64,000 bases of DNA, from sequence record OR885871. One strand, written 5' to 3'. Below, piece after piece: positions 3,573 to 46,907 of the stretch (positions within the stretch are counted from its first letter, which is position 1; the number at the start of each line of letters is the position of its first letter). The notes below the pieces were generated by a model. That model made no database searches. It saw nothing but the letters and a program-made list of their open reading frames with translations, and was not told the DNA's origin. This DNA comes from Escherichia phage vB_EcoM_JN03. The translations under genes and the position numbers were made by a program.

Positions 3573-5072
3573 ATGTCTGAGATCCAAATAGTCAAAGTGA
3601 ACGAAGTTAGAATGCGGATCCTTGCCGAGGATTATATCCGTGAAGAACTCAACGATTACTTCAAATTTGAAGATCCTAATTTCCAACCGAATCCGTTCAG
3701 TAAATGGGACGGCGTAGTGCGGTTGTTCACAAAGAGTTCTGGGCTTATCGACATCGGCCTGTTATTTGAGGTGTTCAAATTCTGTAAGATGAACGGTTAC
3801 ACCATCAAATTAGATCCGGCCTTAAAATATATTCAAGATATTCCGGATGAAGAAATTCATGCGTTCATCGATACATTGAATGCGGTGTACCGAGACGAAA
3901 ACAAACAATATCAAAAAGCGATTGTCCGCGATTATCAATTTGATTCTGTTGCCACAGCAATACGCCAAAGCAGATGTGTCCTCGAAGCTGCCACGAGTGC
4001 TGGCAAATCCTTTATTTTGTACATCATGGCGCGTTACTACAGGCAACGCAGAGATGCCCTCGAAAGTAATCTGAGGACGTTAATCGTTGTACCATCCATT
4101 CATTTGGTGACTCAGTTGTATGACAACTTCGAAGAATATAGCCACGGGACAGAATGGAAACCATTGATGAATGTCCAGACAATATACGAAGGGGCAACGA
4201 AAGAGATTTTCAAACCCATAGTTATTTCAACTTGGCAAGGTATCCAGAACCAACCCAAAGAGTGGTTCCATCAATTTGGAGATATCGTCGTCGACGAAGT
4301 ACATACATCAAAATCAGATAAATTGTCTTACATCTTGAATAACTGTATTAACGCTGATCAACGTTTGGGAGTAACCGGAACCCTGGCGAATACAAAGGTC
4401 GCAGGGTTACAAGTCGTTGCTCACTTTGGCGCATATCATAAAATTATTACAGCGCGCGATTTAATCGATCTAGGATTTGCGGCGGACATCAATGTTAATA
4501 TGATTGAAGTCATACATCCTATGGCAGACTGTATTGAAATGCACGGTGCTGAGTATCAAAAGGAAATAGAATTCCTCATTGCTAACGAACGCCGCAATGA
4601 ATTGATAGCTCGAATGGCTCTATCTTTGAAAGGGAACGTCGCAGTAATGTTCGAACGTATCGATGCACACATGATGTTGGTTTATGAAATGCTATCGGCA
4701 GTCAAGAAAAACGTATTCGTCATCAACGGGGAAGTCAAGACAGAAGTTCGTAAACAGATTCAGGCTGCTATGGAAGAAGGGGAAGATATAACACTGTTAG
4801 CATCATATGGCACTATGCAACAGGGCGTATCTATCAAAAAACTCCATCATCTGATTTTGGCCCATCCCAGCAAATCTTATATCCGTGTTATACAGACATT
4901 GGGGCGTTTGATGCGTCAGCATTCCTCTAAGGATGTTGCGCGAATCTGGGACCTGGTAGACAACCTGCGCTACAACGGTTCTTACAACCATGCTCTCAGG
5001 CATTCTCATGAGAGATATAAATTTTATCTTATGGAGCGCCACCCTGTTAAAATGAAAAAAGTGGCGCTCTAA
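3573..5072 (+). CDS. uvsW: UvsW-like SF2 DNA helicase
   Basis: Walker A ATSAGKS, DEVH-type box VVDEVHT, C-terminal HPSKSYIRVIQTLGRLMR; blocks recalled from T4 UvsW (VISTWQGIQNQPKEW, ARIWDLVDN) are present. Confidence 0.85.
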   Translation: MSEIQIVKVNEVRMRILAEDYIREELNDYFKFEDPNFQPNPFSKWDGVVRLFTKSSGLIDIGLLFEVFKFCKMNGYTIKLDPALKYIQDIPDEEIHAFIDTLNAVYRDENKQYQKAIVRDYQFDSVATAIRQSRCVLEAATSAGKSFILYIMARYYRQRRDALESNLRTLIVVPSIHLVTQLYDNFEEYSHGTEWKPLMNVQTIYEGATKEIFKPIVISTWQGIQNQPKEWFHQFGDIVVDEVHTSKSDKLSYILNNCINADQRLGVTGTLANTKVAGLQVVAHFGAYHKIITARDLIDLGFAADINVNMIEVIHPMADCIEMHGAEYQKEIEFLIANERRNELIARMALSLKGNVAVMFERIDAHMMLVYEMLSAVKKNVFVINGEVKTEVRKQIQAAMEEGEDITLLASYGTMQQGVSIKKLHHLILAHPSKSYIRVIQTLGRLMRQHSSKDVARIWDLVDNLRYNGSYNHALRHSHERYKFYLMERHPVKMKKVAL

Positions 5073-6528: not shown

Positions 6529-7518
6529 ATGTCTAACATCACTATCGTCACAGATCAATACGCGTGGGAAAACAAATATCGTCCTGACAATCTGGATGAG
6601 ATCGTCCTCCCTTCAGACGTCCGTGCAAAAATCCATGGCTATGTTACATCAGGCAATGGAAACATCCCCTCAATGCTGTTCTATTCCCCTCAGCCTGGCA
6701 CGGGCAAGACTACTTCTGCTCTGGCTGTGTGCAACGAAATCGGTTGTATCAAACCGTTGATGATCAATGCGTCACTGGATAACAGCATTGATGTCATCCG
6801 TGACCGTGTTATTCAATACGCAACTGGCGTCAGTGTTTTCGGTGGCCGCAAAGTCGTTATCCTCGATGAAGTTGAGCGACTTTCCATGGCGGCGCAGGAA
6901 TCCCTGAAAGGCATCGTAGAGAAAGTCTCCAAAAACTGCTCCTTCATCCTGACGACTAATGCGAAACAGCGCGTTAACGAACCTCTGCGTTCCCGCTGTC
7001 GTGAAATTGATTTTATCTGGTCCGAAAAGGAAGCAGATGAAGTTAAACTCCAATTCATGCGTCGTTGCGCAACTATCCTGACAGAGGAAGGTATTCCGTA
7101 TGAAGCTGGTGTAATTGCTTCCATTGTGAAAGCATATTTCCCAGATAATCGCAAAATTATGGGAACTCTTCAGGATAATGCCACCACGTTTGGTAAAATC
7201 GATGAACGCGCTCTGGCACAGGTTAAAGCAGGGGAATTCCAAGCGCTGGTTGATTTCCTGAAAACCAATGATTGGGCTGGGATGAAGCAGTGGGTGACCG
7301 ACAACCAAAACTACATCACTGAAGATTTTTATTCCCGTTTCTTCCATTTCTGCGTTCCCCAGAACAAGGAAAAGACTCCTTTGATTCAAAAAGAGTCAAT
7401 CCCTGATCTGGTATGTGTCTGTGGTCAGTCTCAGATTGAACATCGTTCCGTCGGCGACGTCTGGTTACACGGCGTTTACTTCTTGACTAACGTCATGCTC
7501 AACATCAAATGGAAGTAA
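6529..7518 (+). CDS. 44: clamp loader large subunit (gp44-like AAA+ ATPase)
   Basis: Walker A PQPGTGKTT, Walker B ILDEVE, SRC-like arginine motif; AAAGAGG RBS. Confidence 0.9.
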   Translation: MSNITIVTDQYAWENKYRPDNLDEIVLPSDVRAKIHGYVTSGNGNIPSMLFYSPQPGTGKTTSALAVCNEIGCIKPLMINASLDNSIDVIRDRVIQYATGVSVFGGRKVVILDEVERLSMAAQESLKGIVEKVSKNCSFILTTNAKQRVNEPLRSRCREIDFIWSEKEADEVKLQFMRRCATILTEEGIPYEAGVIASIVKAYFPDNRKIMGTLQDNATTFGKIDERALAQVKAGEFQALVDFLKTNDWAGMKQWVTDNQNYITEDFYSRFFHFCVPQNKEKTPLIQKESIPDLVCVCGQSQIEHRSVGDVWLHGVYFLTNVMLNIKWK

Positions 7519-7522
7519 TATT

Positions 7523-7945
7523 ATGGCCGCTCCGTCACTGTTCGATTACCTCGGTGCGTTGAATAGCACCAAAGAGAATCTGTTGATGACCGAAGACCCC
7601 GAAATCAGAAAGGCATTTGATCCTTTCATGACTCGGCGCGGCCTTGCTCAGAGTAAAGACACGCTTGTGGTTGCTGAACAAATGAACCGCTTCCATGCCA
7701 TTACTCCTTGGATGCAATGGAACCTGGCGTTTCATAGCATTCCGGCAAAACGTCGCTATGACAAGTGGTCTAAGAAGGGAGCTATGGATCCTGATGTAAA
7801 ATTGATTTCTGAGTATTATTACATCAGTCCTGAAAAGGCTTCAGAATATGTTCGATTCCTGCCGAAAGAAGTCCTGGCTGAAATCAAGGCGAAGGTCGAA
7901 CGTTCCAACAGCAACGAAAAAGCCAAACCGCGCAAGGCTAAGTAA
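7523..7945 (+). CDS. 62: clamp loader small subunit (gp62-like)
   Basis: Follows gp44 with a 4-nt gap; IPAKRRYDKWSKK resembles the T4 gp62 segment as recalled. Confidence 0.65.
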   Translation: MAAPSLFDYLGALNSTKENLLMTEDPEIRKAFDPFMTRRGLAQSKDTLVVAEQMNRFHAITPWMQWNLAFHSIPAKRRYDKWSKKGAMDPDVKLISEYYYISPEKASEYVRFLPKEVLAEIKAKVERSNSNEKAKPRKAK

Positions 7946-7974
7946 TTCAAATAATTGTTAAAGGGGTATGAGTC

Positions 7975-8439
7975 ATGGCGCGTAATACGCTGGACATCTT
8001 AAAACTTTCAGCTGTCAACGATGAGGCCAGCATTGTTGACTGTATGGTTGAAGTTCAATTGAACCAAGACAAACCAGGGATTTTCCTGGGTATCAAGGAA
8101 ACGCTGAGTCGGATAGGGGTTAACACTCGTCAAGAGCCTAACACCTTGTATCAAACGTGCCATATTCTGCATAAATTTGGCAGATATCACATCGTGCATT
8201 TCAAGCATTTGTTCATGCTAGATGGGCACTACAACGGCTTTACGCGTGAAGATGTCCTGCGTATGAATCGGATTATACGGCTTCTGGAGCAATGGAATAT
8301 GGTTAAGATCTTGCATCCGGAACAAATAACCGAAGTGGCTGACATGTCTCGGATCAAAGTTGTAAAACATGACCAAGTTTCTGAGTGGAAATTGGTTCCA
8401 AAATACACCATTCGCCCAAGTCGGGCAAAAAGCGAATAA
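7975..8439 (+). CDS. regA: translational repressor RegA
   Basis: ETLSRIGV...LYQTCHILHKFGRYHIVHFKHLFMLDGH...WKLVPKYTI matches the T4 RegA pattern; conserved position after gp62. Confidence 0.8.
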   Translation: MARNTLDILKLSAVNDEASIVDCMVEVQLNQDKPGIFLGIKETLSRIGVNTRQEPNTLYQTCHILHKFGRYHIVHFKHLFMLDGHYNGFTREDVLRMNRIIRLLEQWNMVKILHPEQITEVADMSRIKVVKHDQVSEWKLVPKYTIRPSRAKSE

Positions 8440-8455
8440 CTGGAGTCGCTATATT

Positions 8456-9319
8456 ATGACAACTACATTTAATAAAAACGTGAGATTGAATTTGGCTTTT
8501 GGTAATGCGGCTGGAGATATTACAGCCCCTGACTTCGGTAAAATTCGCAATCAGGCCAAACTGGTTCTGGAAGAGACCCGCGAATTACTGGAAGCGGCTT
8601 ATTTCGATCATGACATCAAACTTGAGCTGGTGGCAACTCCAAAAGAAGACACCGATGATGTTGATATGGATAAAATCCTGAAAGCCATCATGGACGCTCA
8701 GGGTGATATCACAACTGTTAATGACGGCGTGGCCCATATCGCTGGGTTTAATGGTGATGAATGTTTACAACGCGTGTTTGCCTCTAACATGAGCAAATTT
8801 ATTCGCTCAGAAGATGAAGTCGGTCCGGCACTGGAATATTATTATTCACGCGGTTTCCCAGATGGCCAGTTACGCGTTGAAGGTGAATTCCCTCAGGCAT
8901 GCATCAAAGTGAATGAGACTGTGATGTGGAATGGCAAAGAATATCCGAAAGGAAAATTCCTGAAAAACATGGCTGTGTTCAAAGAGCCTGATTTCTCTGA
9001 TATGCTGACGAATACCCCTTCCCGTCAGATCAATGACATCGTTGCCAGCATGGCAATTGAAGAAGGTCAGGTATTTATTGATGATCTGAACGGCGTGGCG
9101 TTGGTATCTCCAAAAACGTTGGAAGTAATTCTTTCTATGGCAGTTGAAAAATCTTCTCGACCCGTAGATGTTAACGGCCAAATTGAAAGTTATGTGCCAG
9201 CGTATATCATTAACGATACCAATATGCCTAAGCTGTGTGGGGTGTGGGGTGCTAATGTTCGTGTATACGCGTGCGCACCTGTTCAAAACACTGTGACACA
9301 CCTCTCTCGCTTCGATTAA
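8456..9319 (+). CDS. MazG-like all-alpha NTP pyrophosphohydrolase domain protein (N-terminal) with unknown C-terminal domain
   Basis: N-terminal AKLVLEETRELLEAAYFDHD and NMSKFIRSE resemble MazG/HisE EExxE/D motifs; 287 aa. Confidence 0.35.
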   Translation: MTTTFNKNVRLNLAFGNAAGDITAPDFGKIRNQAKLVLEETRELLEAAYFDHDIKLELVATPKEDTDDVDMDKILKAIMDAQGDITTVNDGVAHIAGFNGDECLQRVFASNMSKFIRSEDEVGPALEYYYSRGFPDGQLRVEGEFPQACIKVNETVMWNGKEYPKGKFLKNMAVFKEPDFSDMLTNTPSRQINDIVASMAIEEGQVFIDDLNGVALVSPKTLEVILSMAVEKSSRPVDVNGQIESYVPAYIINDTNMPKLCGVWGANVRVYACAPVQNTVTHLSRFD

Positions 9320-15097: not shown

Positions 15098-17306
15098 ATC
15101 ATTAACATTTAAGAATGCGGTTGCGACCGTCGCGCCGTCTAACCATGTAATCGTTGTGGATATCTCCGGTTCCATGTATCGTTCACTTCCAGAAGTCCGT
15201 AAGCATCTGAAGGAGAACCTGCCTTCCCTGGTGAAACCGGAAGATACTGTGAGCATCCTTTACTTTTCATCTCGCGGTGATTTCGGAACGGTATTTGCCG
15301 GACGTCAGATTAACAGTGCAACTGACCTCAGTGAGATCAATAATCTAATTGACCGTTTCCTGAAGCCTTCTGGTTGTACTGGTTTTGTTGAGCCGCTGAA
15401 ACTGGCTGCGGAAACTGCCATTAGCCTGAATAAACCTGGTTATGTTAACAACCTGGCATTCATGACCGACGGGTATGACAACTGCTGGCGTTCTAATGAA
15501 ATCCTGGATGCCGCTGAAGTACTGCCCAAAGCGTTTGATAACATTACCTTCATCGAATACGGTTGGTATTGTAATCGCGAACTGCTGGGGCTAATGGCAG
15601 AACGTTCTGGTGCGACCCACGTATTCGCCGAAGGACAGAATGAATATCAGACCGAATTGGAAAACGTGCTGAAAACTTCTTCACCGAAAGTTGTAGTCGA
15701 TGTTCCTCTGGTTTATACCCATGCCATTTATGTTGAAAATGGCGTGGCGACTGTTTTAGCTGTGCATCCTGATGAAGAGCACCCTATTGGCCACGTCAGC
15801 ATCCCTGAAAGCGTTTCTCAGCTGTGGGTTGTAAACCCCAACATGATCGACCAGCTGGATAATCTGGCAGACATCCAAGCGGCATACGTGCTGGCATTTT
15901 ACGGCGTGTATACCATGGACGCAGATTTGGTTTGGGCTGCGCTGAAGAAAACGGGAGATGTTCGTTTCATCAAACAATACAGCAACTGTTTCACCAAGCA
16001 GGACTATTCCAACATCAAAGTCGATCTGACCCAGGCTATCGTGGATGAAACTCTGCGCGGCGTAGATGGCATCGATTACAATATGGTTCCGGCTGAAGAC
16101 GCCACCACCATTGTTGATGTTCTGACGTATTTGGCTGAAGCAGATGTCTCTATCGTCACCAAGCATCCGCTATTCTCTTACAAGAGCATTGGGCGCGGTA
16201 CTATACAAAAAGTTGACGACACCGAAGACAAGTTGGCCGAAGAGATTGCGAATGCGACTTCTAAAGAAGAGCGTAAAGCCCTGGCGCTCAAACTGGCCGA
16301 GCACGAAGATTGGACGCCGGAATTCAATCCAGCAGATGATAAAGGGATTGTCCCGATCAGCAATTTGGTCTATAATTCAGAACGTCCTAACATCAGTGTG
16401 CAGACAGTTCAACACGGAACGGTTATTGTGCCTGAGTTTGTACAGAAGAAATATGAACTTCCTGAAGAGCTGGGAACCTGGCGTTATCGCAATTACACCA
16501 TTGTCAAGGATGGTATCATCAACCTGAAAACAATGCCTATCACTGCAGATTCTCCGATTGTTCGGGCTAAGGTGGCACAGGATTTGACTGCCATGGGTGT
16601 TCATGTGTTTGGTGGGCCGGAAGTCTTCATTGTAAATCTGGAAAGTGTCCCAATGGTTAACCGCGCCATGACAAAGAATATCAGTGCTGCTGAATTCTTT
16701 GCAGACAATGTGCGCCGTGAAGCATTGAAGGCAAAGCAAAAAGTTCTGAAATTCTACCGTGATGAACTGGTTGGCAAAGGCAACGCTACTGGTCTGGCTT
16801 CAAAATATGGCAAAGAAGCGGCTGATTTCCTGTCAGCAAACGGCATTCGCGACTATGGATTTTCACCGAAGACTTCTTCTGTAGAATCAACCGATGTCTA
16901 TATGAGTCGTGAATTGAATGTGAAAATCAAAGGCGCATCTTCACTGCCGAGCATCGCGTCTGTTATCAAAAAACAGACGGACGGTAAAAAACTGAATGTC
17001 GCTGATCAGCTGATCGCTAATGCCCTGGCCGAATACAATGCGTTTGTTAAATCGCCGATGATCACCAGCGTACCGGAAGAGACTCAGAAAAAGCTGATCG
17101 AAAGTTGGATTGGTGATGCAGCAAAAGCAGCTATCAACGAAGTTCGATCTCTGAACAAAACGCTGTCCAAGGTAGTTTATGGGATTGTTGCAGGCCATGG
17201 TTGGTTTACCGACCTGGATTTGGAAGAATCCACTATGGATGTGGAAGTTGATGGGGTGAAATACACTGTCACTGCCGAACTGGCTGAAAAAGAAGTCAAA
17301 ATCTAA
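15090..17306 (+). CDS. von Willebrand factor A (vWA) domain protein with MIDAS motif, 738 aa
   Basis: N-terminal VVVDISGSM (DxSxS MIDAS) followed by T and D motifs typical of vWA folds; long C-terminal region of unknown function; optimised codons. Confidence 0.75.
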   Translation: MIESLTFKNAVATVAPSNHVIVVDISGSMYRSLPEVRKHLKENLPSLVKPEDTVSILYFSSRGDFGTVFAGRQINSATDLSEINNLIDRFLKPSGCTGFVEPLKLAAETAISLNKPGYVNNLAFMTDGYDNCWRSNEILDAAEVLPKAFDNITFIEYGWYCNRELLGLMAERSGATHVFAEGQNEYQTELENVLKTSSPKVVVDVPLVYTHAIYVENGVATVLAVHPDEEHPIGHVSIPESVSQLWVVNPNMIDQLDNLADIQAAYVLAFYGVYTMDADLVWAALKKTGDVRFIKQYSNCFTKQDYSNIKVDLTQAIVDETLRGVDGIDYNMVPAEDATTIVDVLTYLAEADVSIVTKHPLFSYKSIGRGTIQKVDDTEDKLAEEIANATSKEERKALALKLAEHEDWTPEFNPADDKGIVPISNLVYNSERPNISVQTVQHGTVIVPEFVQKKYELPEELGTWRYRNYTIVKDGIINLKTMPITADSPIVRAKVAQDLTAMGVHVFGGPEVFIVNLESVPMVNRAMTKNISAAEFFADNVRREALKAKQKVLKFYRDELVGKGNATGLASKYGKEAADFLSANGIRDYGFSPKTSSVESTDVYMSRELNVKIKGASSLPSIASVIKKQTDGKKLNVADQLIANALAEYNAFVKSPMITSVPEETQKKLIESWIGDAAKAAINEVRSLNKTLSKVVYGIVAGHGWFTDLDLEESTMDVEVDGVKYTVTAELAEKEVKI

Positions 17307-17314
17307 ATTCAACT

Positions 17315-17339
17315 GGCGGGGAAACCCGCCTTCATTTTG
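17315..17339 (+). terminator. rho-independent terminator
   Basis: GGCGGG-gaaa-CCCGCC hairpin followed by TTCATTTTG. Confidence 0.6.
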
Positions 17340-17343
17340 AGAT

Positions 17344-17661
17344 ATGCTTATGTCAAACAAACCAACTTATGTTGAAGTAATGCGTGTTCTGGCTCAGTAC
17401 GCTTGTGACAACCTGAACATGGAAACTTGGCGCAACGGGGATCACAAGGACAAGTTTGATAACATTGATGATAATATCGATGCTTTAGCGCCGTTACGGG
17501 TTAAGAATGATCTCGGCGGTGACGATCTTGACATGATTGAGCTGGTCATGGAAATCGAAGAAGAGTACGATGTAGAAATTAGTGACGAGTGGGTGGGTAA
17601 ACATGGAGATGATCCTACCCTCGGAGAGTTAGCTGAACTCGTCGTTGCCCTGCGCAAGTAA
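17344..17661 (+). CDS. acyl-carrier-protein-like protein lacking the phosphopantetheine-attachment serine
   Basis: DLGGDDLDMIELVMEIEEEYDVEISDE aligns with the ACP core [27 protein letters not shown], but the DSL serine is replaced by Asp. Confidence 0.6.
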   Translation: MLMSNKPTYVEVMRVLAQYACDNLNMETWRNGDHKDKFDNIDDNIDALAPLRVKNDLGGDDLDMIELVMEIEEEYDVEISDEWVGKHGDDPTLGELAELVVALRK

Positions 17662-17667
17662 CTGAAG

Positions 17668-17696
17668 ATCCCCAACGTTTGTTGGGGATTTTTACT
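17668..17696 (+). terminator. terminator hairpin (repeat A, copy 1)
   Basis: ATCCCCAAC-gttt-GTTGGGGAT 9-bp stem followed by TTTTTACTTTT. Confidence 0.6.
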
Positions 17697-17704
17697 TTTA
17701 GGGG

Positions 17705-17733
17705 TTTACTTCTATAAGGCAAATGCGTATTAT
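17705..17733 (+). promoter_or_regulatory. T4-type early promoter (GTTTAC -35, 17-bp spacer, TATTAT -10)
   Basis: GTTTACT at 17704-17710, 17-nt spacer, TATTAT; copy 1 of a repeated cassette. Confidence 0.55.
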
Positions 17734-17782
17734 TGAATTCATCGGGCGGGGCGTTCCCGTTCATTGAAAGAAGGTATATATT

Positions 17783-18013
17783 ATGTCTGCTGTATCACGC
17801 GTTGTTGACCTCACCCCATTTTGCCTGAACAATATTGCTAACCCTAAATTGGTATTGTTTAAAGATCCCTCTAATTTCTGCTGGCTGGCAAGTTGTGATA
17901 CCCACAACGGACGTCGTGCTGTTTGGGAGTTTCCCGCAACTGATGAAGGTAGAATTTCCGCTATAAGAAAATTAGAACTGGAAAATTCAAGCCGAGAAAT
18001 TAAACAGGCATAA
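17783..18013 (+). CDS. small protein, 76 aa
   Basis: AAGGT RBS; bracketed by repeated terminator-promoter cassettes. Confidence 0.45.
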   Translation: MSAVSRVVDLTPFCLNNIANPKLVLFKDPSNFCWLASCDTHNGRRAVWEFPATDEGRISAIRKLELENSSREIKQA

Positions 18014-18023
18014 CTTTTATTAA

Positions 18024-18088
18024 ATCCCAACAAACGTTGGGGATTTTTACTTTTAGGGGTTTACTTCTATAAGGCAAATGCGTATTAT
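18024..18088 (+). repeat. repeat A copy 2: terminator hairpin plus early promoter cassette
   Basis: About 65 bp nearly identical to 17668-17733; stem 18024-18044 with loop gttt flipped to aaac; TTTACT 18060-18065, TATTAT 18083-18088. Confidence 0.6.
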
Positions 18089-18139
18089 TCAATAACTGGC
18101 GAACGATGGGTTCACCAGGTTGAAAGGTAAGATTATATC

Positions 18140-18379
18140 ATGAAGAACAAAATGGTAGAAACTTCAGTGGAGATTGATCGTAATTGGGGCTTGCTCCGCG
18201 CTAAAGGGTTCCGTCGTGTGTATGCGACCAAAGAAGTATATGCCCAGCGCCGCGATGTTATCATCAGCAAGAAGGGAAAAGATTGGGTTGCCGAAGAAGT
18301 CGATGTCGAAACAGGCGTCGTCGGAAAGGTGAAAGCCAAGGCCGCGATCCTCTTCGCTCTTCTGAAGCACATCAGTTAA
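18140..18379 (+). CDS. small basic protein, 79 aa
   Basis: AAAGGTAAG RBS; own promoter from repeat A copy 2. Confidence 0.45.
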   Translation: MKNKMVETSVEIDRNWGLLRAKGFRRVYATKEVYAQRRDVIISKKGKDWVAEEVDVETGVVGKVKAKAAILFALLKHIS

Positions 18380-18399
18380 TTCTATAACTTAGGGTGGGG

Positions 18400-18438
18400 T
18401 ATGATTACCCCGCCTATTTGAAATGCAGGAACTATACC
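18400..18438 (+). repeat. repeat B copy 1: hairpin plus conserved translation-initiation region
   Basis: GGGGTA-tgat-TACCCC hairpin then CCGCCTATTTGAAATGCAGGAACTA immediately before the ATG; a second copy lies at 18958-18998. Confidence 0.5.
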
Positions 18439-18945
18439 ATGACCGATCAACAAATTCAAGATTTATTTTACCTCGTCCATGATAAGTCCCATATTATGCG
18501 CCCTGGCACTGTTTCTCCTGTCGTCCGTGATCTGGTGCAAGAATTACGCGAACCGCAGATGACCACACTTTATCGTGGGTTGCCTAAAGAGGACGTTGTG
18601 CGTTTAGAGATGATGTTTGAACGAGGCGACATGTTCCAGACATGGGATTCTTGTCTTAGCTTCAGTGAATTGAAGCATGTGGCCAAAAAATTTTCTAAAT
18701 CGTATGGAACCAGAGCTGTTGCTCGCATTTGTTACAAACATCGAAACGGACTCCCAGAGGGGCTTAATGTCTTTGGTTCTCTAGAAAAATTTGTGAACAA
18801 AGACGATGAATCAGAAATGGATATGCTGGACTTGGCGTCCATGGAGAAAGAATGGATATTCTGCCAGCCTCGCGTCTTCCCAGTTTCAAGAAAAATGGCA
18901 ACAGATGGGACGATGGTTTTTACCGTATCACTTATTACTCTATAA
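18439..18945 (+). CDS. hypothetical protein, 168 aa
   Basis: ATG preceded by AGGAA within repeat B; N-terminus MTDQ shared with the next gene. Confidence 0.5.
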   Translation: MTDQQIQDLFYLVHDKSHIMRPGTVSPVVRDLVQELREPQMTTLYRGLPKEDVVRLEMMFERGDMFQTWDSCLSFSELKHVAKKFSKSYGTRAVARICYKHRNGLPEGLNVFGSLEKFVNKDDESEMDMLDLASMEKEWIFCQPRVFPVSRKMATDGTMVFTVSLITL

Positions 18946-18957
18946 ACCCACGGCGGG

Positions 18958-18998
18958 GTATCTTTGCCCCGCCTATTTGAAATGCAGGAACTAATATC
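18958..18998 (+). repeat. repeat B copy 2
   Basis: GGCGGGG-tatcttt-CCCCGCC hairpin then CTATTTGAAATGCAGGAACTA before the ATG at 18999. Confidence 0.5.
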
Positions 18999-19277
18999 AT
19001 GACAGATCAAAGAAGTATTGCTCGTTCGGAAATCAAAGATATTATACAGAGCAAAACCAACGAAACTCATGCTCAATCCAGAATGCTATCTCGATTTGTT
19101 GAAATTAAGTTTGACATTGAAGAGAATAACAATCGGAGAGCGCTGGAGGGAATGTTGGCGATTATCTTGGGCCATGTCACCAATTCAGCATACGACATGG
19201 ATGATTTAACTCGTTTGTTGAACGCCCAGAATAACGTTGGGACTTCTGTTCGCGAATTGCTGTTTAAGTCCGAATGA
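18999..19277 (+). CDS. hypothetical protein, 92 aa
   Basis: Starts MTDQ like the upstream paralogous 5' end; RBS lies within repeat B. Confidence 0.45.
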   Translation: MTDQRSIARSEIKDIIQSKTNETHAQSRMLSRFVEIKFDIEENNNRRALEGMLAIILGHVTNSAYDMDDLTRLLNAQNNVGTSVRELLFKSE

Positions 19278-19314
19278 ACTAACTAAGGGATAACCCTATA
19301 TCCCGAGGTGTGTC

Positions 19315-19764
19315 ATGTTCCTTACATCCTTTATTGACTGGATGAATATCATAAATGGTCTGAGGATCCCTGTTGGGAACCTCGGGCTTTCTCGTTCTTC
19401 TATGCCGCAAATCGATGCCGACAAACAAGAAGATTTTCACAAATATCTTGAAGACAACGGCGTGTCCATAGATGCTGCGCAAGTACCCATCAAAATGCTT
19501 CGTCTTACCCAGAACGAAATCAATAAAATGAAGGTCTGGAAGATTATGAAGCAGATCAGAAATAAGAAGCCCATGGGTCGAGTTTGGGTGTCTTCTGACA
19601 ATTACGTTGTTGACGGGTCTCACCGATTTGTCGCTGCGTTGAACATGGACGGCAAACAGCGCATGAAGGTCTACAAAGTTGATTTGCCAGCGATGGAATT
19701 TGTTAAACTCGCTAAACAGTTTCAGGGTGTGCGATACAGAACGGTCAGCGATACCCGTTTCTGA
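19315..19764 (+). CDS. ParB/Srx-fold (ParB-like nuclease domain) protein
   Basis: LRLTQNEINKM...VVDGSHRFVAA resembles the ParB N-terminal DGxHR motif. Confidence 0.5.
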   Translation: MFLTSFIDWMNIINGLRIPVGNLGLSRSSMPQIDADKQEDFHKYLEDNGVSIDAAQVPIKMLRLTQNEINKMKVWKIMKQIRNKKPMGRVWVSSDNYVVDGSHRFVAALNMDGKQRMKVYKVDLPAMEFVKLAKQFQGVRYRTVSDTRF

Positions 19765-19843
19765 ATACGATAGTTTATTGAAACCCTTTACTCAACATGG
19801 TGACATCCCTATCATTTTATCCAATGAAATAAGGAGAATCACC

Positions 19844-20533
19844 ATGAAACGTTTAATCATCGGGGTTGTGCTGGCTGGTCTGGCACTTCCTGCCACCGCC
19901 AAGCTGAACTCCACAGGTGAAAAACTGTGGTCTGATCTTTCCTACTGTGCTGGGTTCTCCCAAGCTGTTGCTATAGACAAAACTGGTTCCATAGAGAACT
20001 TTGCTGAACTCTGGGCCACAGGTAACGTCACAGATGCCGTTGTAAACGCTGGTATTGAGTTTAATCGATATAAGCAAGGCGCGTTCAACCTGAAAGGATA
20101 TATGAACGACGAAGCATTTAACCGAGGAGGCATGGAGGCGAGCGATCTTATTATGACTGGTCGTATGGACACACAAGGACGAATGACCGTAAGACAGTGC
20201 CGTTCTCTCCCTTCTCCAGCATTACAAAAAGGTGTGCAGGTTGGCCGACGTCAGCTGGACCTCATCAATGATGGAAACCAATGTATCCGAGTATTTGAAT
20301 ATAGCGCTGATCAAGAATCTGATCGAAGACTGAAAAAGGAATGGCGGACTCGCGCCCTTGGCCTGAGAGCATGGCTGGTGGAAAATGATCATTATTATGA
20401 AGACCGTGTTCAGAATGGTTTGAAAGATCTTTCCACTAATTTGTCTGTCAATCTTGATGATCCCAGGCTTGCCCGTGAACTCAAGCAAACAAGAATTGAC
20501 TGTGATAATATGATGAAGGAGAACGAAAGATGA
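19844..20533 (+). CDS. secreted/periplasmic protein with signal peptide, 229 aa
   Basis: AAGGAG RBS; N-terminus MKRLIIGVVLAGLALPATA is a classic signal peptide. Confidence 0.55.
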   Translation: MKRLIIGVVLAGLALPATAKLNSTGEKLWSDLSYCAGFSQAVAIDKTGSIENFAELWATGNVTDAVVNAGIEFNRYKQGAFNLKGYMNDEAFNRGGMEASDLIMTGRMDTQGRMTVRQCRSLPSPALQKGVQVGRRQLDLINDGNQCIRVFEYSADQESDRRLKKEWRTRALGLRAWLVENDHYYEDRVQNGLKDLSTNLSVNLDDPRLARELKQTRIDCDNMMKENER

Positions 20534-20850
20534 AAATCAAAATCTTATTGTTATTCCTGTACACTTTCATGTCTTCCCAAGTATTGGCAGCTCCGGCCAG
20601 TAAGTTGAATATTTGTGCTGCTTGGTTGTCTACATATCAACAATTCCATCCGGATGATAAGGATACATCAATCCTTTTATCTGATTATGAAGGTGAATTG
20701 AAACGCCTTGATCTCTATAGTGTGGACCAGATAGAGAATGCGCTTGATTTACCCATGATGGAATCTGCTGCAGACAACAGCAAACAGACTATTAAAGATT
20801 TGACCATGTGCCGTGAAATTGCAACTAATTTCGTTGGAAATCAAAGATAG
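20530..20850 (+). CDS. small secreted protein with signal peptide, 106 aa
   Basis: ATGA overlap with the upstream gene, GAAGGAG RBS; N-terminus MKIKILLLFLYTFMSSQVLA. Confidence 0.5.
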   Translation: MKIKILLLFLYTFMSSQVLAAPASKLNICAAWLSTYQQFHPDDKDTSILLSDYEGELKRLDLYSVDQIENALDLPMMESAADNSKQTIKDLTMCREIATNFVGNQR

Positions 20851-32566: not shown

Positions 32567-32600
32567 TGAAGGGCACTAAATATCACGTGCCCTTTATCTT
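32567..32600 (+). terminator. rho-independent terminator
   Basis: GGGCAC-loop-GTGCCC hairpin followed by TTTATCTTTT. Confidence 0.6.
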
Positions 32601-33928: not shown

Positions 33929-33972
33929 AGGGGCTTTCGCCCCTTTACTTCTTCAATATCCTTCCCTATACT
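33929..33972 (+). promoter_or_regulatory. terminator hairpin fused to early promoter (CTTTAC, N17, TATACT)
   Basis: AGGGGC-tttc-GCCCCT hairpin then TTTACT 33944-33949, 17-nt spacer, TATACT 33967-33972. Confidence 0.55.
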
Positions 33973-34020
33973 TCATTCCATAAGCAGTACGACACCAACT
34001 TGAAACGAAGGAACTATATT

Positions 34021-36852: not shown

Positions 36853-36903
36853 GTCATAGCCCCTTCGGGGGCTAAATACATCAAAATCCTTAGGAGATCC
36901 ACG

Positions 36904-37449: not shown

Positions 37450-37504
37450 TTACAAAATACAATCCCCCTAAATACAGGGGGATTTTCTTTTAGGGGTAAA
37501 TATC

Positions 37505-39931: not shown

Positions 39932-40008
39932 AGTTCACATAGGGCGGTACACAACACCCCGCCGAATGAAAAGTGAAACGACCCAACTACATTATGAGGA
40001 ATTACATC

Positions 40009-44976: not shown

Positions 44977-46080
44977 ATGAACGAACAAAAGAAATTTTCA
45001 GTATTTGACCCATCTTCAGATAATACAGGTTTGCCGTTCTTTGGCGACCCTGTGAGCATTCAGCGCTATGACAAAGTCGCATGGCCTTTTGTACAGAAAT
45101 GGTATGAAAAAGGTCTTAGTCAATTCTGGCGTCCGGAAGAAGTAGACGTGACCAAAGACAAAGCCGACTTCGCCACCCTGACTGAAGCCGAGAAGCACAT
45201 CTACTTCTCCAACCTGAAACGTCAGGTCATGTTGGACTCTATTCAGGGTGCCGCCCCCGACGAGGCGTTTAAGGTGTGGACTTCAACGCCTGAAATACAG
45301 TTCGCTGTACAGGAATGGTGTCGACAGGAATCTATTCACTCCCTGTCGTACACGCACATCCTGCGCAATACGGTGAACGACCCTGGTATCGTGTTTGACC
45401 ACCTCTTGGACGTTGCCGAAATCGTAGACTGTGCCAAGCAGATCAGCACCTACTACGACGACATGATCACGTACAGCGGCATGCGTATGGCTGGACGCGC
45501 GTTCACCCGTGAAGACATCATGAACGCCAAGCGTGCATTCTGGCGTGCTCTGTTTGCTGCTAACTCCCTCGAAGGCGTCCGTTTCTATGTTTCATTTGCG
45601 TGTTCTTGGGCTTTCATGCAATTCCTCAACAAAATGGAAGGCAACGCTAAAATCATTCGTCAGATTGCTCGTGATGAGCAAGATCACCTCATCCTGACCC
45701 AGACTTTCCTGAACCGTCTGCCACTGATGGACCCTGATTTTGCCATTATTAGAGAAGAACTGCGCGGCGAAATGACCCAGATGTATGTCGACGTTGTCAA
45801 CCAAGAAAAAGAATGGGCGAATTATCTGTTCAAAGACGGCTCAATGCTGGGACTGAATGCCAATATCCTTCATCAAATGGTGGACTGGTTGGCAACACAC
45901 CGTATGGGAGCCATTGGCCACCCATATCCAGGACAAGCCCGTAAAGACAATCCGGTGCCATGGATAAATGAGTGGCTAGATAATAAAACAATGCAATATG
46001 CATTACAGGAAGCGGAAGCCCCTGATTATCTGACTGGTGTCCTTACTGGATCAGTCTCCGACGGTCTGAAATTTGCCTAA
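44977..46080 (+). CDS. nrdB: ribonucleotide reductase small subunit
   Basis: Di-iron carboxylate ligand pattern (ExxH twice) and a tyrosyl radical region; size 367 aa. Confidence 0.85.
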   Translation: MNEQKKFSVFDPSSDNTGLPFFGDPVSIQRYDKVAWPFVQKWYEKGLSQFWRPEEVDVTKDKADFATLTEAEKHIYFSNLKRQVMLDSIQGAAPDEAFKVWTSTPEIQFAVQEWCRQESIHSLSYTHILRNTVNDPGIVFDHLLDVAEIVDCAKQISTYYDDMITYSGMRMAGRAFTREDIMNAKRAFWRALFAANSLEGVRFYVSFACSWAFMQFLNKMEGNAKIIRQIARDEQDHLILTQTFLNRLPLMDPDFAIIREELRGEMTQMYVDVVNQEKEWANYLFKDGSMLGLNANILHQMVDWLATHRMGAIGHPYPGQARKDNPVPWINEWLDNKTMQYALQEAEAPDYLTGVLTGSVSDGLKFA

Positions 46081-46089
46081 AGGTGAGAA

Positions 46090-46314
46090 ATGATTACGAT
46101 TTATTCCAAACAAGGTTGTGCGCAATGTTTACAAGCTGAAAACATCTGTCGCATTCGCGGTATTGAACACCAAATTCTGAAGCTAGACAAAGACTACAAG
46201 CTGGAAGAATTACAGAAAATCACTGGTAAGCAACGCATGTCTATGCCCGTGATTGTTCTGGCTGACCAAACCGTGACCGACGTTACTGGACTCGCCGCAA
46301 GTTTGAAACGCTGA
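46090..46314 (+). CDS. glutaredoxin/NrdH-like redoxin
   Basis: 74 aa with CAQC active-site motif directly after nrdB. Confidence 0.55.
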   Translation: MITIYSKQGCAQCLQAENICRIRGIEHQILKLDKDYKLEELQKITGKQRMSMPVIVLADQTVTDVTGLAASLKR

Positions 46315-46323
46315 TCTTTCAAA

Positions 46324-46368
46324 GCCCCTAACCCAGGGGCTTTACTTTTCAAAAACCTGGTTTATAGT
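46324..46368 (+). promoter_or_regulatory. terminator hairpin fused to early promoter (CTTTAC, N16, TATAGT)
   Basis: GCCCCT-aaccc-AGGGGC hairpin then TTTACT 46341-46346 and TATAGT 46363-46368. Confidence 0.5.
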
Positions 46369-46416
46369 ATTCTAGGTCACGGCAACAACGCCACATTTGA
46401 CCAGAAGGACTATATC

Positions 46417-46803
46417 ATGTATCTGAACACACCAGCCGTATTAGAAGCCACCATCTCTTTCCCTATCCAAGGCCTGGCGAAGTCCAGAGCGTTCCTTAAA
46501 CAAGTCCCCTTTGCGTTTAACGTCCACGGGGAGAGATACCCGCGCTCTATCCTGCGTGCCCTGCGTGATGCCCTGCGTAACGGGGCGGCGCTGACCAAGG
46601 AAGAGTTGCGATCTAAAGAAGTGCACATGATCGACCCGGAACTGTTATCTGAAGAACCAGAACTGTACCAAGATTTCCAAAACGACGCCCGTAAAGCTCA
46701 GCTGATGTACGAGAACGACCAGCTGATGTTCAAGAAGGGCGATGACGCTCTGTACGTGGTAGACAAGGGCACAAACCTGCCTCTGGTACTCTTCATCAAG
46801 TAA
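46417..46803 (+). CDS. hypothetical protein, 128 aa
   Basis: GAAGGA RBS. Confidence 0.5.
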   Translation: MYLNTPAVLEATISFPIQGLAKSRAFLKQVPFAFNVHGERYPRSILRALRDALRNGAALTKEELRSKEVHMIDPELLSEEPELYQDFQNDARKAQLMYENDQLMFKKGDDALYVVDKGTNLPLVLFIK

Positions 46804-46811
46804 CCCGACCA

Positions 46812-46857
46812 GCCCCTCATCGAGGGGCTTTACTTCTATAAATCCTGCGCTTATACT
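46812..46857 (+). promoter_or_regulatory. terminator hairpin fused to early promoter (CTTTAC, N17, TATACT)
   Basis: GCCCCTC-atc-GAGGGGC hairpin then TTTACT 46829-46834, 17-nt spacer, TATACT 46852-46857. Confidence 0.55.
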
Positions 46858-46907
46858 TCCCAGTAATTCATTGGCCAACGCCACAAATTGAAAGCGGGTA
46901 CTACATC

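Follow-up and report, generated by a model that had tools for sequence, protein, structure and literature searches.

In T4-like phages, the cassettes known as PeSLs cluster in hyperplastic regions, where they flank ORFans (PMC2839356, PMC4122927). Each of them joins a stem-loop terminator to a stretch rich in A/T, an early promoter, a Shine-Dalgarno sequence and a start codon, and neighbouring PeSLs recombine, giving gene deletions and insertions together with mini-circles (PMC2839356; PMC4122927). In the original work, promoter and terminator activity was shown by reporter fusions and the mini-circles by inverse PCR (Arbiol et al. 2010, PMC2839356; Comeau et al. 2014, PMC4122927), and the crossovers were located within the cassettes (PMC2839356). 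The searchable literature mentions PeSLs only for T4-like phages, and no earlier report of cassette shuffling in the Ackermannviridae was found. Here we describe a small-gene locus in Escherichia phage vB_EcoM_JN03 (record OR885871; the 64,000-nucleotide stretch that was analysed is called the window), a Kuttervirus of the family Ackermannviridae, in which two pairs of repeats, termed cassettes A and B, lie between short genes. It is probable that this locus is a hyperplastic accessory-gene region whose regulatory linkers double as recombination sites, and that it is the Ackermannviridae counterpart of the PeSLs.

Cassette A is a terminator-like hairpin joined to a promoter-like motif, and cassette B is a hairpin joined to a ribosome-binding site. 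Both copies of cassette A have the PeSL composite of stem-loop, predicted sigma-70-like early promoter, Shine-Dalgarno sequence and start codon, and their promoter fits the PeSL lineage consensus TTTACW-N17-TAYWAT; cassette B has no promoter and so falls outside the composite, but behaves alike. As with PeSLs, several copies lie in a hyperplastic region beside ORFans; insertions, deletions and replacements at the cassettes leave a single or a chimeric cassette (units of 355, 559 and 488 bp; the chimera is in the relative UTK0004); and the crossovers are located in the stem-loop, the promoter or the ribosome-site part. Unlike in RB49, the numbers are small, with seven TTTACT promoters and two tandem pairs of them in the 64 kb, and cassette A is restricted to a single locus. 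A flip-flop of the hairpin loops, found here, has not been described for PeSLs. If the proposal is correct, it would extend the PeSL concept beyond T4-like phages, and would imply that a promoter-less linker of hairpin and ribosome site can play the same role. Lambdoid morons are also single accessory genes that carry a promoter and a terminator of their own, found sporadically between conserved genes, but their insertion is thought to be independent of conserved flanking repeats (PeSL authors' discussion), whereas here the repeats appear to be the sites of exchange.

Over the 2.5 kb round the locus, identity to Salmonella phage SPTD1 is 99.8%, and this region has matches in 275 phage records. 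The locus was aligned across four GenBank genomes and fourteen IMG/VR genomes, the latter found by way of the acyl carrier protein (ACP) gene, with Det7, Magnus and phage 241 added later; the contents of the variable slots were tabulated for 18 loci. One of the aligned genomes, L023, is Agtrevirus-like, its closest GenBank relatives being pSal-SNUABM-02 and Shigella phage MK-13. Coordinates are those of the window except where a relative is named, and the genes and cassettes of this locus, as well as those of a second one at 46.3-46.9 kb, are on the plus strand.

Cassette A is a direct repeat of 68 nt at 17671-17738 and 18026-18093, with 93% identity and a spacing of 355 bp. A core of 50 nt, GGGGATTTTTACTTTTAGGGGTTTACTTCTATAAGGCAAATGCGTATTAT, is 100% identical in the two copies and has no other occurrence in the 64 kb, with matches in 0 of 100 shuffles. 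The copies differ solely in the 4-nt loop of the hairpin and in one base after the -10 element, the loops being GTTT (17677-17680) in copy 1 and AAAC (18032-18035) in copy 2, which are exact reverse complements. The hairpin of copy 1 (17670-17687), CCCCAAC-GTTT-GTTGGGG, begins 9 nt past the ACP stop codon and is followed by ATTTTTACTTTTA at 17688-17700; it is predicted to be an intrinsic terminator, with a T-tract that would double as the A/T-rich region upstream of the promoter. The predicted promoter, of T4-type early or sigma-70-like form, is TTTACT-N17-TATTAT at 17705-17733. In copy 2 the hairpin (18025-18042) is (T)CCCAAC-AAAC-GTTGGG(G), flagged as terminator-like, with its T-tract at 18043-18055 and the same predicted promoter at 18060-18088. 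The motif TTTACT-N17-TATTAT was matched twice, against 0.01 matches expected. The stems fold at -19.8 kcal/mol (z -5.5) and -9.2 kcal/mol (z -2.5), and all four hairpins of cassettes A and B are more stable than shuffled controls. A 26-mer of cassette A is confined to this locus, occurring once per related genome and twice where the 76-aa gene described below is present, which rules out a genome-wide dispersal of the cassette. A metagenome scan for cassette A yielded one LIMEstone-like contig only, and an Rfam search of 17200-19900 gave nothing at E <= 1.

In a comparison of 19 copies of cassette A from several genera, the T-tract, the -35 and the -10 elements did not vary; the stretch of 18 nt that separates GTTTAC from TATTAT has at least five versions, all of the same length. 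Over 15 distinct sequences, pairing in the stem is 99%, including one compensatory change from C-G to U-A, as against at most 57% in shifted-register controls. The hairpin begins 9-13 nt past the stop codon, and ATTTTTACTTTTA follows. The promoter fits the T4/PST PeSL consensus (PMC4122927). CTAAATA, annotated as a late-promoter motif in SPTD1, occurs seven times in the window and not at all in 16.5-20.5 kb. The promoter, the terminator and the early timing are predictions, drawn from the consensus match, the phylogenetic footprint and this absence of late motifs. Early promoters of CBA120 were not identifiable by informatics (Kutter et al. 2011), and a 2024 review of the Ackermannviridae makes no mention of promoters, terminators or transcription. 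The present comparison supplies Kuttervirus and its sister genera with a predicted, strongly footprinted consensus for a T4-type early promoter.

Cassette B is a repeat of 49 nt at 18386-18434 and 18945-18993 (86% identity, spacing 559 bp), within which the two copies share an exact 25-mer, CCGCCTATTTGAAATGCAGGAACTA, that has no further occurrence. With its continuation into the gene, copy 1 (18386-18450) consists of the hairpin GGGTGGGGTA-TGAT-TACCCCGCC (18392-18415), TATTTGAAATGCAGGAAC, TATACC and ATGACCGATCAA, and copy 2 (18945-19010) of the hairpin GGCGGGGTA-TCTT-TGCCCCGCC (18952-18973), TATTTGAAATGCAGGAAC, TAATATC and ATGACAGATCAA. The hairpins fold at -18.8 and -19.5 kcal/mol. The similarity extends into the first four codons, ATGACCGATCAA and ATGACAGATCAA (ATGAC[C/A]GATCAA), which encode MTDQ. 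Both of the proteins behind cassette B (168 and 92 aa) start with MTDQ because the repeat runs through these codons; as they are otherwise unrelated, the shared N-terminus is part of cassette B. A promoter in cassette B was considered and rejected, there being just a weak TATGAT in the hairpin loop that is lost in flipped-loop variants. The 168-aa and 92-aa genes are probably read through from the promoter of cassette A copy 2, and the B hairpins may act as attenuators or RNA-stability elements.

The initial annotation of this DNA had picked out two near-identical terminator-promoter cassettes, a tetraloop flipped on a retained stem, and a second pair of cassettes in front of genes starting MTDQ, and all three of these observations hold. 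Its promoter-like motif is also present, but with a different spacing: what was given as GTTTAC-N17-TATTAT is GTTTAC-N18-TATTAT, the same as TTTACT-N17-TATTAT. The suggestion that the small genes are independently transcribed agrees with the predicted promoter in cassette A, but not with cassette B, where none is recognisable.

The ACP gene and the genes for the 79-aa, 92-aa and 149-aa proteins are present in 18 of the 18 tabulated loci, and it is the slots between them that vary. The slot between the ACP and 79-aa genes is empty in CBA120, Se-G and others. In the window, SJ3, Det7 and L023 it holds a 76-aa ORFan, flanked by two copies of cassette A (phage 241 has a homologue with 71% identity), and elsewhere an unrelated 79-aa ORFan (Mutine and others) or a 62-aa open reading frame. 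The slot between the 79-aa and 92-aa genes may hold the 168-aa gene, flanked by two copies of cassette B, or a DenV-like pyrimidine-dimer glycosylase (Pfam PF03013, E 2.7e-13), or a 124-aa protein with a signal peptide; it may also hold several of these together, or be empty. In some relatives the 124-aa protein is there with, and in others without, the 168-aa or glycosylase genes. The losses are of unit length. In CBA120 and Se-G precisely 355 bp, comprising one cassette A and the 76-aa ORFan, are absent and one cassette A is kept, and in maane (L025) and L027 a single cassette B joins the 79-aa gene straight to the start codon of the 92-aa gene.

The ends of exchanged tracts also fall in the cassettes. 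Between the window and L023, identity is 44-82% in the ACP gene and its upstream neighbour, which encodes a protein with a vWA domain, and 92-100% inside a block of 1.27 kb that runs from the hairpin of cassette A copy 1 (~17667) to cassette B copy 2, where the right breakpoint was placed at ~18945 or, in the 5' arm or the loop of the hairpin, at ~18960. Beyond the right end the identity collapses, a different gene following. Third-codon identity in the three genes inside the block is 0.97, 0.95 and 0.91; outside, it is 0.37 in the ACP gene and 0.28, 0.54 and 0.55 in three downstream genes. Near-identity at third-codon positions points to a recent transfer of the block rather than to mere conservation of the proteins. 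Compared with Se-G, the window has 26 substitutions in 18426-18939, one in 17307-18425 and one in 18946-19764. Here an allele of one gene's length has been swapped, with the two B cassettes as its limits, 18426 being inside copy 1. The ACP gene is itself a swapped module: the alleles of the window and of maane share 65% amino acid identity between flanks that are 97-100% identical, and the left end of the swap, where identity drops from 97-99% to 46-69%, comes right after a GC-rich hairpin between the vWA and ACP genes (17315-17330, GGCGGG-GAAA-CCCGCC followed by TTCATTTTG, -15.6 kcal/mol). The idea of a modular hotspot, in which small genes are exchanged between repeated cassettes, had been put forward at the outset with the proviso that the locus should vary among relatives. 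It does vary, being a mosaic in more than 20 of them, and the unit-length indels, the alternative cargo and the tracts ending in cassettes support the idea.

A scan of the 64 kb for promoters of the TTTAC/TTGAC type identified seven TTTACT-N17/18-TAT..T sites, at 17705, 18060, 19787, 33944, 39903, 46341 and 46829, all of them intergenic and on the coding strand; other variants of the -35 element were mostly within genes. A GC-rich hairpin lies just upstream of five of the seven, and at 33944, 46341 and 46829 it abuts the -35 element. The sites include two tandem pairs, each flanking an ORFan. The second pair consists of cassette C1 (46323-46370), AGCCCCT-AACCC-AGGGGCT fused to TTTACT-N18-TAGTAT, and cassette C2 (46811-46857), AGCCCCT-CATCG-AGGGGCT fused to TTTACT-N17-TATACT. 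Between them is a gene for a 128-aa ORFan (46417-46803; PHROG 32429, no assigned function). When 45700-47700 was used as a 2-kb query, 17 of 192 matching records covered at least 80% of it, and among the records listed most are missing about 490 bp. At base level, CBA120 lacks exactly one cassette (C1) and the 128-aa gene, a period of 488 bp. UTK0004 has a single chimeric cassette, with the loop of C1 and the promoter spacer of C2, and this is the product that would be expected from a crossover between tandem copies. The records 'Enterococcus phage Efm 3-10' (38.5 kb) and 'Pseudomonas phage Pa-sanjiao' (158 kb) match the same 2 kb at 94-98% identity, and mislabelling or contamination of these entries is the probable reason.

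The flipped loop is not peculiar to the pair in the window, but is a recurrent, family-wide polymorphism. In the cassette A that follows the ACP gene, the window, maane, Det7 and L026 have the loop GTTT, while AAAC is the form of CBA120, of Se-G and of four genomes at a greater distance, which are LIMEstone-like or Agtrevirus-like. Mutine, SJ3, L015 and L018 have GGTTT, and L020 and phage 241 its reverse complement AAACC. The arrangement of the loops in copies 1 and 2 of L023 is opposite to that of the window. For cassette B, the loop is TGAT in the upstream copy and its reverse complement ATCA in the downstream copy of L019 and L023. There are thus three reverse-complement pairs over both types of cassette, GTTT/AAAC, GGTTT/AAACC and TGAT/ATCA, and among hairpins with the CCCCAAC/GTTGGGG stem no intermediate between the forms of a pair was seen. 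Opposite orientations were found in five of six comparable tandem pairs, a small sample in which the pairs are not independent. Because the stems are perfect palindromes, inversion of the loop is equivalent to inversion of the whole hairpin.

In plastids, loop inversion is usually ascribed to template switching at hairpins. The recurrent inversion of loops of 4-5 nt between stems of about 9 bp is well documented in plastid genomes (PMC6824564). The phage loops are similar in having 4-5 nt between perfect inverted repeats of 7-9 bp, two reverse-complement forms, and recurrent switching among close relatives; they differ in that the hairpins are putative terminators or attenuators that would double as recombination linkers. 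By analogy, the flipped loops are best explained as recurrent small inversions between palindromic stem arms, through template switching. It is distinctly unlikely, though worth stating in view of their presence in both cassette types and of the opposite orientations in tandem pairs, that they are more than neutral slippage and were left by a step, dependent on a hairpin or cruciform, that itself mobilises the cassettes, through template switching or structure-specific cleavage at the palindromic stems in the course of recombination-dependent replication. If that were true, the Ackermannviridae would have a structure-guided, integrase-free exchange of cassettes that operates on promoter-less linkers of hairpin and ribosome site as well.

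The following scheme is proposed for the repeats, the unit-length indels, the alternative cargo, the tracts that end in cassettes and the cross-genus near-identity of one block at synonymous sites. The hairpin of cassette A would end transcription from upstream, with the T-tract next to it. Host sigma-70 RNA polymerase would then read TTTACT-N17-TATTAT and produce a leader of about 50 nt, with a hairpin at its 5' end and a conserved ribosome-binding region. Cassette B would provide a GC-rich hairpin, as attenuator or RNA-stability element, and a translation-initiation region that reaches into the first four codons. As tandem copies of the linkers are near-identical, and so are the linkers of co-infecting relatives, including those of different genera, we propose that a T4-like homologous-recombination machinery crosses over within them. 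A crossover between tandem copies would delete a unit, probably releasing it as a small circle, and the same crossovers could insert units or swap alleles or unrelated genes, the neighbours keeping intact expression signals. The genes uvsY, uvsW and gp46/47, which are T4-like recombination genes, are annotated in this segment of the genome, consistent with a mechanism driven by homology. We infer both that the crossovers are directed by the homology of the cassettes and not by selection on the outcomes, and that circular intermediates are formed.

Several observations weigh against this proposal. The junctions of any gain, loss or replacement must be intergenic for the phage to be viable, so that selection imposes part of the coincidence with the cassettes. 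Cassette A is found at a single locus per genome and is not a dispersed family like the dozens of PeSLs in RB49, and the TTTACT promoters of the 64 kb are only seven. In Mutine, the alternative 79-aa ORFan abuts the next gene without a second cassette A, which makes it a replacement with only one of its junctions in a cassette. In the Taipeivirus Magnus (L035, 820-1146), the 76-aa gene stands behind a bare CTTTACTT-N17-TAATAT promoter without a terminator hairpin, and is closely coupled to the gene after it, a second cassette being absent; the 76-aa cargo can therefore exist without tandem cassettes, and this arrangement may be ancestral or an alternative one. Homing endonucleases are active nearby in certain relatives only: in L015, a gene for one of the NUMOD3 type (277 aa, ~7134-7967) lies between the 149-aa gene and the following 229-aa gene. 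Finally, literature searches found no transcript map or study of transcription starts for Kuttervirus or the Ackermannviridae.

Some of these observations speak for a first alternative, namely that the cassettes are selected expression signals and nothing more, with recombination occurring anywhere, or illegitimately, and recombinants within genes being lost. The gain and loss of unrelated genes then necessarily maps between genes, the conservation of the -35, -10 and ribosome sites follows from function alone, and both the confinement of cassette A to one locus per genome and the cassette-free junctions of Mutine and Magnus fall into place. We nevertheless consider this explanation unlikely. 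It does not account for deletions of exactly one repeat period (355, 559 and 488 bp) that leave one intact, in-register cassette, nor for the chimera of two tandem copies in UTK0004. Allelic tracts, moreover, could end within genes, yet they end in cassette B (18426, 18939) and in hairpins, and for T4-like PeSLs crossovers were placed inside the cassettes by experiment (PMC2839356).

A second alternative, to which we give little probability, is that the mosaic was made by gene conversion through homing endonucleases, with co-conversion of flanking DNA and with the cassettes as bystanders. The Ackermannviridae carry many homing endonucleases (PMC3296691). Besides the gene in L015, CBA120 (L001, ~3611-3886) has a 91-aa, internally deleted remnant of the NUMOD3 endonuclease gene, and in Det7, KE31 and SeKF_64 the annotation places homing endonucleases next to the second locus. 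In the window, however, there is no endonuclease gene at 17.3-19.8 kb or at 46.0-47.2 kb, and the indels are exact units from repeat to repeat and not insertions of endonuclease genes. Nor would conversion tracts that start from a cut site be expected to stop at both B cassettes round one gene, as in the comparison with Se-G.

It is very improbable that a dedicated structure- or site-specific system acts on the folded hairpins in the manner of an integron. Integron cassettes are also small promoter-served gene units, with imperfect palindromes (attC hairpins) at their borders and proposed circular intermediates; here, breakpoints do lie in hairpin loops and the loops are recurrently inverted, and the authors of the PeSL work speculated on a protein that recognises the stem-loop (PMC2839356). 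Unlike integron cassettes, the cassettes of this locus would bring a promoter of their own. The 42.5 kb round the locus have no annotated integrase or recombinase, and no such domains were found in the locus proteins with Pfam and NCBIfam. Crossovers are also seen outside the hairpins, in the promoter or ribosome-site part, the inversion of the loops has a simple explanation in replication slippage, and homologous exchange is the simplest reading. There is hardly any case for a tandem segmental duplication of a gene with its upstream region and later divergence of the coding parts, as the direct repeats in tandem at gene-sized spacing and the similar size of the genes flanked by cassette A (76 and 79 aa) might suggest: the repeats comprise regulatory DNA only (non-coding cassettes 86-100% identical), the flanked genes are not paralogues (protein comparisons gave E 0.26 and no alignment at E <= 100), so that gene duplication is ruled out as their source, and the cargo is sporadic, is found in other genera with the same cassettes, and shares its slots with unrelated genes.

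The cargo includes the 168-aa gene (18439-18945). Its protein has no sequence match in Pfam, NCBIfam or the PDB, and a fold search was needed. The AlphaFold (AF2) model has a pLDDT of 85 and a pTM of 0.78, and in Foldseek all 50 of the top 50 PDB matches were ADP-ribosyltransferases of the R-S-E class, the best being HopU1 (E 2.5e-7) and others including C3, ExoS/T, Tre1 and iota toxin. In the alignment R46, S74 and E136-x-E138 are invariant, in keeping with the catalytic R, S-x-S and E-x-E motifs of that class. The model thus allows the confident prediction of an ADP-ribosyltransferase fold, and with its R, S and E-x-E residues the protein resembles the R-S-E mono-ADP-ribosyltransferases (T4 Alt, ModA and ModB; C3, HopU1 and ExoS), while differing in its lack of sequence matches to these databases and in having nine homologue clusters only. 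As a small phage gene of a predicted early region, it is comparable to T4 modA and modB. The putative activity in the RefSeq name 'RNA polymerase ADP-ribosylase' comes from a match to PHROG 832 (E 9.5e-16, with a gappy profile). The tag PF26816, precomputed for two homologues, was not reproduced in the Pfam search. The ViI-like phages have been said to lack Alt/ModA homologues (Kutter et al. 2011, the CBA120 paper); in a family described as without Alt/Mod enzymes, the 168-aa protein is a candidate for a host-takeover factor. The initial annotation saw the locus as a typical home for host-takeover or anti-defence genes, and host takeover is plausible for this one cargo; another is a DNA-repair glycosylase and the rest are ORFans, and no result here supports an anti-defence role.

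The 76-aa ORFan (f20, 17783-18013; PHROG 22629, no assigned function) is present in 31 of about 275 related records, scattered over phages of Salmonella, Escherichia, Klebsiella and Yersinia, and has three homologue clusters in 5.8 billion proteins. It has no Pfam or NCBIfam match, and its moderately confident model gave no fold match better than E 0.12; a resemblance to repeats of the Whirly/PUR/PC4 type was not significant and was dropped. The 79-aa gene (18140-18379; PHROG 804, no assigned function) was found in every relative examined, with a protein 97-100% identical across genera and a third-codon identity of 0.78-0.95, against 0.26-0.57 in its neighbours. The ACP gene (17350-17661; Pfam PP-binding, E 3.6e-7; PHROG 4154) is the conserved left anchor of the variable region, downstream of a gene for a 750-aa vWA-domain protein that ends at 17306. 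The 92-aa gene (18999-19277; PHROG 4458) is a constant member, and the 149-aa gene (19315-19764; PHROG 2859) is the conserved right anchor. Further downstream, an Rz-like spanin gene (RefSeq; 20534-20850) has 17.7% DNA divergence from CBA120 and a third-codon identity of 0.60, adjacent genes having 1-3% divergence, and is a further gene-sized mosaic patch.

The proposal has some practical consequences. It would explain, at the level of mechanism, how phages in therapeutic use acquire, lose and exchange small early genes, between genera as well, and the cassettes could serve as natural, transcriptionally insulated "landing pads" for the engineering of Ackermannviridae.

It is worth adding some observations on the leaders. 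Those that follow the seven TTTACT sites are 28-62 nt long; a TTGAAA-like motif is found in six, and five have a good match to the ribosome-site consensus AGGAACTATATC-ATG, which has 10 matches in the window against 1.85 expected. The leader of the 76-aa gene (17738-17782) has a hairpin near its predicted 5' end (-13.7 kcal/mol), the TTGAAA motif and an AAGG Shine-Dalgarno sequence. The site at 19787-19815, TTTACT-N17-TATCAT, has no hairpin and lies upstream of the 229-aa gene, in an intergenic stretch that is better conserved across genera than its flanks. Most of the TTTACT leaders, and both B cassettes, have the TTGAAA-like motif about 20 nt before the start, followed by (A)GGAAC-TATATC-ATG; leaders with the motif are at approximately 17760-17782, 18118-18139, 18416-18438, 33996-34020, 39985-40008, 46392-46416 and 46885-46907. 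A 'translation repressor protein' is annotated at about 8208-8672 of the window, and the shared leader motif might be a candidate binding site for it.

Three of the CTAAATA late-promoter motifs, at 32576-32582, 36872-36878 and 37468-37474, are inside or directly after GC-rich hairpins: GGGCA-CTAAATAtcac-GTGCCC followed by TTTATCTTTT; AGCCCCttcgGGGGCTAAATA; and CCCCCTAAATACAGGGGG followed by ATTTTCTTTT. These resemble composites of a terminator and a late promoter, and are possibly a late-gene analogue of the early cassettes.

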